A DNA stretch of 64,000 bases from an uncultured Thiothrix sp. (GCF_937873765.1 NZ_CALMZC010000058.1:5713-69712); one strand, 5' to 3'. Positions 3,676 to 41,808 are shown, counted from the stretch's first letter. Translations and numbers: made by a program. The notes: a model not told the origin generated them from the letters alone.

Positions 3676-4284
3676 ATGCAAATTACGATTATTAGCGGTA
3701 GTCATCGTCACCATTCTGAAAGCGAAAAAGTCGCTAAGCATGTGCAAACCGTGTTAACTGCACGAGGCATTCATGCTGAGATTTTTAGTTTAGCGGGAAA
3801 TCCTTTGCCTCTTTGGGATGAATCGATTTGGGACAATAATCCAGCATGGAACCAAATTTTAGCACCTTTGTCAGTCCAGCTAGCAGCAAGTGATGCTTTT
3901 GTCATCATCACGCCTGAATGGCATGGACAAGTGCCCGCAGGATTAAAGAATTTTTTCCTACTCTGGGGGCAAAACGAGCTTGCGCATAAGCCAGCATTAA
4001 TTATTGCTGTGTCATCCTCGACGGGTGGGGCTTATCCTGTAGCTGAGCTGAGAATGAGTAGTTATAAAAATAATCGTATTTGCTACCTTCCAGAGCATAT
4101 TATTATACGTCAGGTTACCAACGTGTTGAATGAAGACGCCAGTACCAATGACCCAACAACTGATACTTATTATCGTAAGCGGATTGATTGGGCTTTAGGC
4201 ATTTTAGAGCGTTATGCACAAGCCTTAGCACCTGTTAGAGCAGCAGACGGTTTATTTAATGAAGAATTTCGCAATGGGATGTAA
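3676..4284 (+). CDS. NADPH-dependent FMN reductase family protein
   Basis: MQITIISGSHR start, TPEWHGQVPAGLKN motif. Confidence 0.85.
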   Translation: MQITIISGSHRHHSESEKVAKHVQTVLTARGIHAEIFSLAGNPLPLWDESIWDNNPAWNQILAPLSVQLAASDAFVIITPEWHGQVPAGLKNFFLLWGQNELAHKPALIIAVSSSTGGAYPVAELRMSSYKNNRICYLPEHIIIRQVTNVLNEDASTNDPTTDTYYRKRIDWALGILERYAQALAPVRAADGLFNEEFRNGM

Positions 4285-31796: not shown

Positions 31797-31814
31797 AACT
31801 CCTCCTCAGGTATT

Positions 31815-31834
31815 TGTATATATATGTATATACG
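31815..31834. promoter_or_regulatory. Probable HutC operator
   Basis: TGTATATATATGTATATACG matches TGTA-N2-TACA-type HutC boxes and lies just upstream of hutI. Confidence 0.65.
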
Positions 31835-31915
31835 TTAACAGCCTGAAAGCAAAAGTCAAGTTACTATCTTGTTTAATAGACTTGAGGATTTTCCTCTATT
31901 AATTCCGCTTATCTG

Positions 31916-31943
31916 AAAAAACAAAACCCCCGGCTAGCGGGGG
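31916..31943 (-). terminator. Intrinsic terminator of the candidate sRNA
   Basis: Minus strand CCCCCG-CTAGC-CGGGGG followed by TTTTGTTTTTT. Confidence 0.85.
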
Positions 31944-32021
31944 CAGAGGTTGCAGGTTTACACCTGTATAATTATTCTTATTGTAGTTCTGATCGAAGTT
32001 CTCAGGACACTCTGTTTTAAA

Positions 32022-32249
32022 TCCCCCCTGCGCTGTTAACACAGGGGGTATCAGGAGTCGAGGCATGGCAGGCTACTTATTTTTATTATGTATTAAGCCT
32101 AACTCGCTACCTCTTAGGGCTTGCTGTTGAACTTCTAACTTCTCCTAAAGTCCCCCCCACTTACGCAGGGGGTATCAGGAGTCGAGGTCTTACAGGCAAC
32201 TTATTTTTGTTGTTGTTTTATGCCTGCTTTCTACCTCTTGGGGCTTGTT
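32022..32249. repeat. Two copies of a ~100-bp module (32022-32125 and 32151-32249)
   Basis: Identical 22-bp core CAGGGGGTATCAGGAGTCGAGG at 32042 and 32166, 124 bp apart, with similar flanks. Confidence 0.9.
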
Positions 32250-32305
32250 GTCTTTATTCCGTTAACCCTTTCTTTTTTTATTCTCGTCCCTTGTGATCTG
32301 TATAC

Positions 32306-32322
32306 TGCAACGGCTGTGCCAA
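32306..32322 (-). promoter_or_regulatory. sigma54 (-24/-12) promoter
   Basis: Minus strand TTGGCAC-AGCCG-TTGCA, a full match to TGGCAC-N5-TTGCA. Confidence 0.85.
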
Positions 32323-32409
32323 CTTGATTGGTAGCGACTTAACTACATGATCTGTAAGGTGTTCAAAGAAATTAAGTTTATTTAATCGACAAAGCTAATC
32401 AGTATGAAA

Positions 32410-32486
32410 CTGTCAAGAAGTGACAGAACTGACAGTAGCAATTGACACAAAACAGCCAGAAGTCGGCTTTGTGTCACTGATTGTCA
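32410..32486. promoter_or_regulatory. Candidate enhancer (UAS) for a sigma54 activator
   Basis: Six TGTCA/TGACA pentamers in 77 bp, including CTGTCA-N5-TGACAG, 115-190 bp upstream of the predicted +1. Confidence 0.6.
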
Positions 32487-32510
32487 GATTATGAGCGGTA
32501 GAAAGGAGCG

Positions 32511-33122
32511 TTAGCTGAGGCTAGAGCGTAAAGCTTGGCGAATCATTTCTTCAACATTGAGATTTTGATTTTCTAAAGGCGCAATCATTTTGCTGGCTTG
32601 AGCAGGTTTATAGCCTAAAGCTAATAACGCATTGAGCGCCTCTTCAACAGGGGAAATAATTGTGAAAGGAGTGTTTGACTGTTTATGGTTGCCTATAAGT
32701 GGCTGGCTAGTATCGACTCTTGGTAAGCGATCACGCATTTCGATAATTAAGCGCTCAGCGGTTTTTTTACCTACGCCCGGAATGCGACTCAGGGCATTGG
32801 CATCGGCTGCATGAATTAGTTGGGCAAATTCAGTGGGAGTCATACCTGAAACGATGGCTAGAGCCATCTTTGGGCCTATGCCTGTGACCTTCAGAAGATG
32901 ACGGAAGAGGGCGCGTTCATCTTGTGAGCTAAAGCCAAATAAGGTTTGAGCATCTTCGCGCACGACGAAATGCGTATAAATTGTCACTTCAGTTTGCTGA
33001 TCAAGCGGCAGATTATAGAAGGTATTCATGGAAGCTTGTAGCTCATAGCCTACACCATGCACTTCAAGTAAAAGTTCGGGAGGCTGCTTATAAATAACTT
33101 TGCCGCGCAATAAGCCGATCAT
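32511..33122 (-). CDS. ruvA: Holliday junction branch migration protein RuvA
   Basis: MIGLLRGK, LLKVTGIGPKMALAI, IPGVGKKTAER. Confidence 0.97.
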   Translation of the reverse strand: MIGLLRGKVIYKQPPELLLEVHGVGYELQASMNTFYNLPLDQQTEVTIYTHFVVREDAQTLFGFSSQDERALFRHLLKVTGIGPKMALAIVSGMTPTEFAQLIHAADANALSRIPGVGKKTAERLIIEMRDRLPRVDTSQPLIGNHKQSNTPFTIISPVEEALNALLALGYKPAQASKMIAPLENQNLNVEEMIRQALRSSLS

Positions 33123-41734: not shown

Positions 41735-41808
41735 GCGGGTGTAGTTCAATGGTAGAACGGCAGCTTCCCAAGCTTCATACGAGGGTTCGATTCCCTTCAC
41801 CCGCTCCA
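41735..41808 (+). tRNA. tRNA-Gly (CCC)
   Basis: GCGGGTG acceptor stem, TT-CCC-AA anticodon loop, GGTTCGATTCC T-arm, encoded CCA. Confidence 0.96.

Follow-up and report, generated by a model that had tools for sequence, protein, structure and literature searches.

A predicted sigma-54-dependent small RNA with covarying tandem modules in Thiothrix and Thiolinea, a possible Hfq decoy

CrcZ is a small RNA (sRNA) of 407 nucleotides (nt), dependent on RpoN, CbrB and IHF, in which several A-rich motifs sequester Hfq (PMC8395346). Through these A-rich tracts CrcZ occupies the distal face of Hfq and titrates Hfq/Crc (PMC8395346, PMC6422490, PMC6296734), and read-through from the upstream gene is known for cbrB-crcZ (PMC8395346). 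CbrAB and CrcZ have been described as exclusive to pseudomonads and Azotobacter, and a sigma-54-driven, A-rich, Hfq-titrating RNA of the CrcZ type is regarded as a pseudomonad speciality tied to CbrAB (PMC6296734). sRNA99 of Acinetobacter baumannii, in the passage that deals with it, is called reminiscent of CrcZ; it has three A-rich AAN motifs and was recovered as a distal-face binder of Hfq by RNA interaction by ligation and sequencing (RIL-seq) (PMC12802169), which would make it another candidate CrcZ analogue outside Pseudomonas. Here we describe a locus in 64,000 nt of DNA from an uncultured Thiothrix sp. (GCF_937873765.1, NZ_CALMZC010000058.1:5713-69712; this whole stretch is called the window), where two similar RNA modules lie between the genes ruvA and hutI. 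Its anatomy, fold, covariation, promoter, enhancer and terminator motifs, conservation, synteny, A-tract enrichment and presence in metatranscriptomes are reported, and we are highly confident that it is an independent, structured sigma-54 sRNA.

Other sigma-54-dependent sRNAs are relevant to this locus as well. NrsZ of Pseudomonas aeruginosa is reportedly sigma-54-dependent and built of tandem stem-loop modules whose number varies between species; it is said to depend on NtrC, to be encoded beside ntrC and to be processed, its three ~60-nt modules carrying a base-pairing seed. GlmY of Enterobacteria is reported to be a sigma-54-dependent decoy sRNA of ~150-185 nt that sequesters RapZ and is activated by GlrR, with IHF, at repeated TGTC...GACA-type sites.

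Transcription signals of the small-RNA gene

The gap of 714 nt between ruvA and the hutI-like gene is built like an independent gene. It holds the single match in the 64-kb window to the sigma-54 (-24/-12) pattern TGGCAY-N5-TTGCW, of which ~0.1 would be expected by calculation. Both promoter elements are retained in every homolog whose 5' flank is present, TTGCA being changed to CTGCA in one of them and to ATGCA in another (loci L033 and L035; homologous loci bear L numbers throughout). Conservation of the RNA begins ~13 nt downstream of TTGCA, as expected for a transcription start. At the other end, the position of the Rho-independent terminator is conserved in all homologs, and every one of them has an equivalent A-R-N tract ahead of it. 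Hairpin P0, close to the 5' end, keeps GGGUUAA and AAGCCC family-wide.

An enhancer-like TGTCA-N5-TGACA palindrome is found ~90-180 bp upstream. Together with a TGACAC...GTGTCA pair it is kept in the homologs that have a 5' flank, including the distant L021, L031-L035 and L037; the DNA around these sites diverges among homologs, and that between promoter and enhancer elements is freely variable. No consensus site for CbrB, NtrC, GlrR or NifA was detected when the upstream region was scanned. Within 194 nt upstream of the promoter there is no TGTTAC or GTAACA, and six TGACA/TGTCA half-sites are present there instead. Neither a GAFTGA nor a Walker motif of an enhancer-binding protein is encoded in the 64-kb window, and signature motifs of hfq, rpoN or IHF are likewise absent from it. 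An AT-rich block, kept as TTATTAAATAAACTT among close homologs, stands between enhancer sites and promoter; from its sequence and from this placement, typical of sigma-54 promoters, it may be a site of IHF-type DNA bending.

Evidence of expression comes from unstranded assembled Logan contigs of related species, in which strand and transcript ends are not readable. Contigs of 235-308 nt lying inside the RNA are present in four metatranscriptomes (X24, X26, X32 and X36), the last of which is a small-RNA library; its 308-nt contig bears 13 unmatched nt at one end. hutI is covered in none of the runs and ruvA solely in X31 and X36. The contigs are consistent with an abundant RNA.

Covarying tandem modules and their distribution

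The RNA contains two direct copies with a period of 124 nt and 76% identity over 89 nt, which form modules of 116-121 nt. Both follow a common plan, in which an outer stem P1 surrounds an inner stem P2 closing an A-rich loop, and the linker GACUCCUGAUA then leads to a G+C hairpin P3. The 20-mer CCTCGACTCCTGATACCCCC occurs at exactly two sites in 64 kb, 32044-32063 and 32168-32187, and shuffles give none. P1 pairs GAGGU with ACCUC in copy 1 and with GCCUC in copy 2; P2 is CAGGCA/UGCCUG in the former and UAGGCU/AGCCUG in the latter. The linker stretch CCUCGACUCCUGAUA is the same in both copies, and a C5/G5 hairpin is present twice with differing loops. Compared with dinucleotide shuffles, folding of the modules gives z = -4.75 for module 1 and -2.93 for module 2. 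The stems, A-rich loops, identical linker and C5/G5 hairpin with variable loop, which an initial annotation had reported from the sequence, were all found again, on the minus strand, and the A-U to U-A swap that it had noticed in the inner stem is located at the loop-closing pair of P2. Its description of a duplicated RNA element is confirmed, with one correction: the copies are not a self-contained element but modules within a predicted ~380-nt transcript (~32295 to 31916).

A covariance model of the module (R1) comprises 116 positions and 19 pairs, and covariation was assessed over 27 different modules, which come from some 14 genomes and metagenomes. Over P1, P2 and P3, 14 of the 19 pairs are changed on both sides. 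Standard pairs fill 90.7% of cells, compared with 38-56% when the partner columns are slid, and none of 500 shuffles reaches any of the observed measures. P1 occurs as GAGGU/ACCUC, GAGUUGUG/CACAACUU, GAGAC/GUCUC and GAGAU/GUCUC. P2 was aligned from P2 hairpins alone; alignments made by MAFFT or fitted to the model shift the P2 of copy 2 by one column and falsely lower its pairing. In register, 95.8% of P2 is paired and four of its six pairs are changed on both sides, the forms being CAGGCA/UGCCUG, UAGGCU/AGCCUG, UAGGCU/AGCCUA, CAGGUU/UACCUG and AAAGUU/AGCUUU. Both-side changes affect six of the eight pairs of P3, which is frequently capped by a GNRA or UUCG loop. Selection on structure, first proposed from a single A-U/U-A swap, is thus well supported by covariation in all three stems, and far beyond that swap; homologs with covarying stems do exist. 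R1 finds one to three modules per homolog.

The exact 20-mer is present in 8 of 185,579 species genomes, seven of them labelled Thiothrix or Thiolinea and one a metagenome-assembled genome (MAG) labelled only Pseudomonadota. Among DNA sequencing runs, the locus turns up in metagenomes of activated sludge and wastewater. A scan of metagenomes with a degenerate 19-mer gave 21 loci, of which three close homologs and the distant L021 are real (L015, L021, L023, L029); the remaining 17 proved to be chance matches inside unrelated G+C-rich genes, where R1 finds no module. Further homologs were traced via RuvA homologs and their contigs. The same gene follows ruvA in Thiolinea disciformis (L031), a Thiolinea MAG (L033), a 'Proteobacteria' MAG (L034), Thiothrix nivea (L032), Thiothrix lacustris (L035) and another MAG (L037). 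Where the sRNA gene was found in Thiolinea and Thiothrix genomes, it always lies downstream of ruvC-ruvA. The 3' neighbour varies: it is hutI solely in the closest group, and elsewhere mazG, an aquaporin gene, the ATPase gene of a type II secretion system (T2SS) or others. In Thiothrix caldifontis (L036, 2100-2245) the sRNA gene is absent after ruvA and the covariance model detects no module; a PPi-type phosphoenolpyruvate carboxykinase gene follows ruvA there after just 145 nt.

Two modules per RNA are present in the clade of the window, L031 and L033, three in L034, and one in L021, T. nivea, T. lacustris and L037; L004 has one truncated module. Since module number varies from one to three, tandem duplication or loss of the ~120-nt unit is ongoing. 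L004 (100-130) and L033 (~3690-3720) also possess extra GGGC...GCCC stems closing (AAU)n or (AAC/AAU)n loops; these hairpins are without P1, linker or P3 and present additional A-rich loops in the same RNAs. At gathering thresholds no Rfam family matches the RNA in the window or in six homolog loci, and at E <= 10 the region gives noise and feeble CrcZ A-tract matches alone. In the literature, no paper mentioning both Thiothrix and Hfq concerns a Thiothrix RNA, and none connects Thiothrix to Hfq or to sRNAs. The sRNA family, which belongs to the sulfur bacteria Thiothrix and Thiolinea (Thiotrichaceae), is previously undescribed. The features of the window are collected in Table 1.

Table 1. 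Features of the predicted sRNA gene, in window coordinates
Feature	Position	Strand	Remarks
Upstream activating region	32410..32487	-	six TGACA/TGTCA half-sites; presumed site for a sigma-54 enhancer-binding protein
Sites in activating region	CTGACAATCAGTGACAC 32487-32471; GTGTCAATTGCTACTGTCAG 32448-32429; palindrome CTGTCA-N5-TGACAG 32426-32410	-	
AT-rich block GATTAAATAAACTTAATTTC	32368..32387	-	between enhancer sites and promoter; candidate IHF-type bending site
Sigma-54 (-24/-12) promoter TGGCACAGCCGTTGCA	32306..32321	-	TGGCAC-N5-TTGCA; predicted start near 32295
Whole predicted small RNA, ~380 nt	31916..32295	-	minimum free energy (MFE) -121.8 kcal/mol, z = -4.67
5' single-stranded A-R-N tract	32268..32282	-	AAU AAA AAA AGA AAG, 5 triplets
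Hairpin P0 (GGGUU...AGCCC)	32241..32268	-	closes 18-nt A-rich loop AACGGAAUAAAGACAACA
Module 1	32131..32246	-	covariance-model match 133.9 bits; MFE frequency 0.58
Module 1 P1	32237-32233 with 32188-32184	-	
Module 1 P2	32226-32221 with 32198-32193	-	
Module 1 loop, 22 nt	32220-32199	-	AAC AAC AAC AAA AAU AAG
Module 1 linker GACUCCUGAUA	32183-32173	-	
Module 1 P3 hairpin	32172-32153	-	GUAA loop
Module 1 P4	CUCCUGA 32181-32175 with UUAGGAG 32148-32142	-	-9.5 kcal/mol
Module 2	32002..32122	-	covariance-model match 111.5 bits
Module 2 P1	32113-32109 with 32064-32060	-	
Module 2 P2	32101-32096 with 32074-32069	-	
Module 2 loop, 21 nt	32095-32075	-	AAU AAA AAU AAG
Module 2 linker GACUCCUGAUA	32059-32049	-	weakly paired or unpaired
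Module 2 P3 hairpin	32048-32024	-	UUAACAG loop
3' single-stranded A-R-N tract	31971..31982	-	AAU AAG AAU AAU, before terminator
Rho-independent terminator	31916..31944	-	GCCCCCG-CUA-GCCGGGGG, then UUUUGUUUUUU; 7 pairs, 6 of them G-C, then T run

Like the sRNA gene, its neighbours are encoded on the minus strand: yebC, ruvC and ruvA upstream (ruvA ends at 32511), and downstream the hutI-like amidohydrolase gene (start 31796), followed by an arginase-family gene and a urocanase gene. An AT palindrome, GTATATACATATATATACA (31812-31835, minus strand), is situated ~15-40 nt upstream of the hutI start and is conserved upstream of hutI in L002, L003, L006, L007, L015 and L029, of which L003 is Thiolinea (Thiothrix) eikelboomii ATCC 49788. 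It matches GT-N-TA-N-AC, the pattern of HutC/GntR-type operators, and its sequence suggests that the hut operon has a repressor-controlled promoter of its own, independent of the sRNA. Between the enhancer half-sites there is a small terminator-like hairpin, AGCCGACUUCUGGCU followed by GUUUUGUGUC (32454-32468, minus strand), which might terminate transcription of ruvA; as L002 and L005 do not conserve the stem, the hairpin may be incidental. An open reading frame of 55 amino acids on the minus strand (31899-32066), with its AUG in CCAUGCCUC of module 2, is very unlikely to be coding, since it extends across the terminator hairpin, L021 lacks its AUG and a 5-nt indel is present in L005. The sole Rfam match at gathering score in the window is a tRNA gene (41735-41805, plus strand, 67 bits).

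A-rich tracts, linker and possible functions

The RNA of the window displays A-R-N runs of 5, 6, 4 and 4 triplets and two runs of 3. Runs of at least four triplets number 4, compared with 0.89 in dinucleotide shuffles (reached in 7 of 1000), and AANAANAA clusters also number 4, compared with 0.84 expected (2 of 1000 shuffles); every homolog has three to six such clusters. The tracts sit in regions predicted to be unpaired, namely the 5' end, the P0 loop, both P2 loops and the stretch before the terminator. The P2 loop measures 19-24 nt in 25 of the 27 modules and carries an A-R-N run of three to six triplets at its 3' side. Hfq has six tripartite pockets on its distal face, which bind exactly 18 nt of RNA as a circular crown. 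With its six triplets, or 18 nt, the loop of module 1 would thus correspond to one complete distal face, and the closing stem would bring the two ends of the crown together.

On balance we favour the view that the RNA is an Hfq decoy, a functional analogue of CrcZ with a different activator and not detectably homologous to it. The two copies would then be the tandem modules of a free-standing, trans-acting minus-strand RNA of ~380 nt. Its transcription by sigma-54 would need a distant enhancer-binding protein, presumably acting at the TGTCA/TGACA sites, possibly with IHF-type bending. The RNA would display four to six (A-R-N)n or AANAANAA tracts, two of them held in 21-22-nt loops by the covarying P1 and P2, and each tract would bind the distal face of an Hfq hexamer. 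With the activator switched on, Hfq, alone or together with a Crc-like partner, would be titrated by this abundant RNA away from A-rich ribosome-binding sites as well as other sRNAs. Translational repression would be relieved in this way, as it is by CrcZ in Pseudomonas. P3, joined by P4 in module 1, would most likely be a structural spacer and nuclease barrier that holds the A-rich loops open, and the conserved linker of module 1 would mainly provide the 5' strand of P4. Binding and titration of Hfq are what we infer here, as are the physiological signal and the activator's identity.

Several observations weigh against a decoy of this kind. The RNA is 35% A, and the enrichment of A-tracts, real as it is, is modest in the distant L021, where 56 of 1000 shuffles reach the count. 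The Rfam model of CrcZ (RF01675) fails to recognise the RNA, its best matches reaching 12.7 and 10.5 bits where the gathering score is 95 and being limited to A-rich stretches, so that the relation is by analogy only. Support from expression derives from unstranded contigs of related species, and the contigs of X25 and X31 run into the promoter or ruvA, as DNA carry-over or read-through would. Finally, titration alone leaves the invariance of GACUCCUGAUA unexplained, including that in modules without a good pairing partner.

Of the segment complementary to Shine-Dalgarno sequences, CCUC forms the 3' side of P1, and distant homologs have covarying sequences in its place (GAGUUGUG/CACAACUU, GAGAC/GUCUC, GAGAU/GUCUC). 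CUCCUGA, which comes next, finds a partner in the first module of every RNA: UUAGGAG, immediately after P3. A longer hairpin, P4 + P3, results; there P4 has -7.5 to -9.5 kcal/mol, better than 91-98% of shuffles. A compensatory change is seen in L033 (UUCCUGA with UUAGGAA), and T. nivea and L034 use a different P4 register, GACUC/GAGUC. In second modules the partner is weak or absent (P4 of module 2 in the window has -6.2 kcal/mol, not better than shuffles), so the motif may be exposed there. A long-range pairing of the module-2 linker with UUAGAAGUU, suggested by RNAalifold, was dropped as it is not conserved in L005. GACUCCUGAUA is invariant in 22 of 22 module hits of the Thiolinea clade (20 distinct sequences), and is swapped for GACUCUUCUG in T. 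nivea, GACUCCUCUAA in T. lacustris and CUACGAAG in L037, where stems and A-rich loops persist. The linker thus has a structural part and could serve as a functional site in one clade at most; what defines the family is something else. The initial annotation had suggested that the CCUC/CUCCU segment, being complementary to Shine-Dalgarno sequences, may be a base-pairing seed or a protein site. What is left of this weakly supported idea is a clade-specific site that may operate in module 2, where alone the linker is free or weakly paired; it is weakened by the place of CCUC in P1 and of CUCCUGA in P4, and by loss of the motif in Thiothrix proper.

The same facts bear on a rather unlikely interpretation of the RNA as a base-pairing sRNA with tandem modules (a class II Hfq sRNA, NrsZ-like), in which GACUCCUGAUA would be the seed for AGGAG ribosome-binding sites, the A-R-N loop and the P3 hairpin with its U-rich tail would only load Hfq, and processing into ~125-nt units would be possible. 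CUCCU does complement the Shine-Dalgarno sequence AGGAG, the linker is identical throughout the modules of the Thiolinea-like clade, even in the divergent L021, L004, L031 and L033, and weakly paired or unpaired in module 2, and AUUUA or ACUUUA after P3 resembles an internal Hfq-binding hairpin with a U-rich stretch. However, CCUC covaries as a P1 strand, CUCCUGA of module 1 is sequestered by UUAGGAG with a compensatory pair in L033, the motif is replaced in T. nivea, T. lacustris and L037, which retain stems and A-rich loops, and window matches to the linker complement ATCAGGAGT with at most one mismatch are at chance level (16, compared with 9.9 +/- 3.6). It is improbable, too, that the RNA is a decoy or scaffold for another protein (ProQ/FinO-type, Crc-like or CsrA-type) at P3/P4 and the linker or at AAGCCC-AAGAGG, with the A-rich loops secondary. 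AAGCCC(C/U)AAGAGG, the linker and the G+C hairpin are indeed conserved in sequence beyond the needs of pairing, and A(N)GGA motifs, UUAGGAG and ACGGAA among them, are present in small number; yet the linker is not kept family-wide, and the features which are conserved throughout the family are the stems and the A-rich tracts. A CsrA sponge of the CsrB or RsmZ type was rejected: the 379 nt of RNA hold just three A(N)GGA motifs, none in a hairpin loop, unlike CsrB or RsmZ.

A sponge of CsrA/RsmA on the opposite strand is very improbable as well. Read from the plus strand, UAUCAGGAGUCGAGG shows GGA motifs and the linker becomes AUCAGGAGU, which resembles a CsrA site, but the loops would be U-rich and no conserved promoter or terminator is found on that strand; it is on the minus strand that the sigma-54 promoter is conserved and that all homologs have canonical terminators, among them L034 with GCCCCGCUCCGGCGGGG followed by UUUUUU. 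The initial annotation had also considered a tandem ligand-binding leader. As a riboswitch or attenuator of hutI-hutG-hutU that senses histidine or urocanate, such a leader could draw on the order of genes, since the next same-strand gene in the window and the closest relatives is the hutI-like gene, then the arginase-family and urocanase genes. It is contradicted by a strong, constitutive-looking terminator ~120 nt before hutI, by the conserved palindromic, operator-like element that hutI itself possesses, by the lack of any alternative anti-terminator pairing or Rfam riboswitch match, and by L005, L004 and L031-L035, where the RNA precedes mazG (often convergent), an aquaporin gene or the T2SS ATPase gene. 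An RNA with its own promoter, its own terminator and a varying downstream neighbour is hardly a leader, and variable downstream gene and terminator together effectively rule out the hut proposal.

A combination of roles is possible, and we put it forward tentatively: a dual-function Hfq decoy in which every module would offer a complete or near-complete A-R-N crown, in a 20-24-nt loop closed by P1/P2, for the capture of one hexamer and, besides, a switchable linker/P3/P4 unit, masked by UUAGGAG in module 1 and exposed in module 2. This unit would serve either for recruitment of a Crc-like co-factor or for pairing with ribosome-binding sites that contain AGGAG. If this were true, sigma-54-driven Hfq titration would have arisen independently of CbrAB/CrcZ outside pseudomonads, with the number of modules (one to three) tuning its capacity.

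Comparison with known small RNAs

The RNA of Thiotrichaceae and CrcZ show no detectable homology, but share promoter class, size and A-tract content and differ in activator site and in the modular, covarying fold found here. The comparison points to Hfq titration by dedicated decoy RNAs as a more general, possibly convergent device. The family also lends itself to a natural test of the idea that Hfq's distal face is captured more readily by a six-triplet A-R-N tract when a closed loop presents it. Thiothrix and Thiolinea are filamentous bacteria behind the bulking of wastewater sludge, so a global regulator of their substrate preference would matter in practice; wastewater metatranscriptomes contain enough of the RNA for it to be assembled.

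With GlmY the RNA would share, in analogy, the design of a sigma-54 decoy. The GlrR sites TGTC-N10-GACA are absent here, GlmY is without A-R-N loops, and no Rfam hit to GlmY was obtained. The likeness to NrsZ lies in the sigma-54 promoter and the tandem modules of varying number; unlike NrsZ, the RNA has no NtrC consensus site, other gene neighbours, modules of ~120 nt dominated by A-rich loops, and no Rfam hit to NrsZ at E <= 10. sRNA99 is likened by description alone, the passage on it (PMC12802169) reporting neither sigma-54 dependence nor modular structure.

The closest counterpart is the CrcZ/CrcY/CrcX family (RF01675) of Pseudomonas and Azotobacter. The new RNA differs from it in host order, Thiotrichales, in its locus after ruvA, not between cbrB and pcnB, and in having TGTCA/TGACA palindromes and no CbrB subsites (TGTTAC/GTAACA). 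Two of its A-rich tracts are placed in closed 21-22-nt loops of duplicated covarying modules with linker and G+C hairpin, and it is a putative binder of Hfq/Crc. Like CrcZ, it has an independent sRNA gene of ~400 nt with an intrinsic terminator, an RpoN promoter (recognised at the sequence level), upstream activator sites and an IHF-type AT-rich block, and several AANAANAA or A-R-N tracts are spread over the ~400-nt RNA; a few contigs span ruvA and the RNA, which recalls the read-through at cbrB-crcZ. The comparison with CrcZ, already drawn in the initial annotation, thus does not extend to detectable homology but is apt in function, for a sigma-54 promoter, a length of ~380 nt and four AANAANAA tracts are found together in this RNA.

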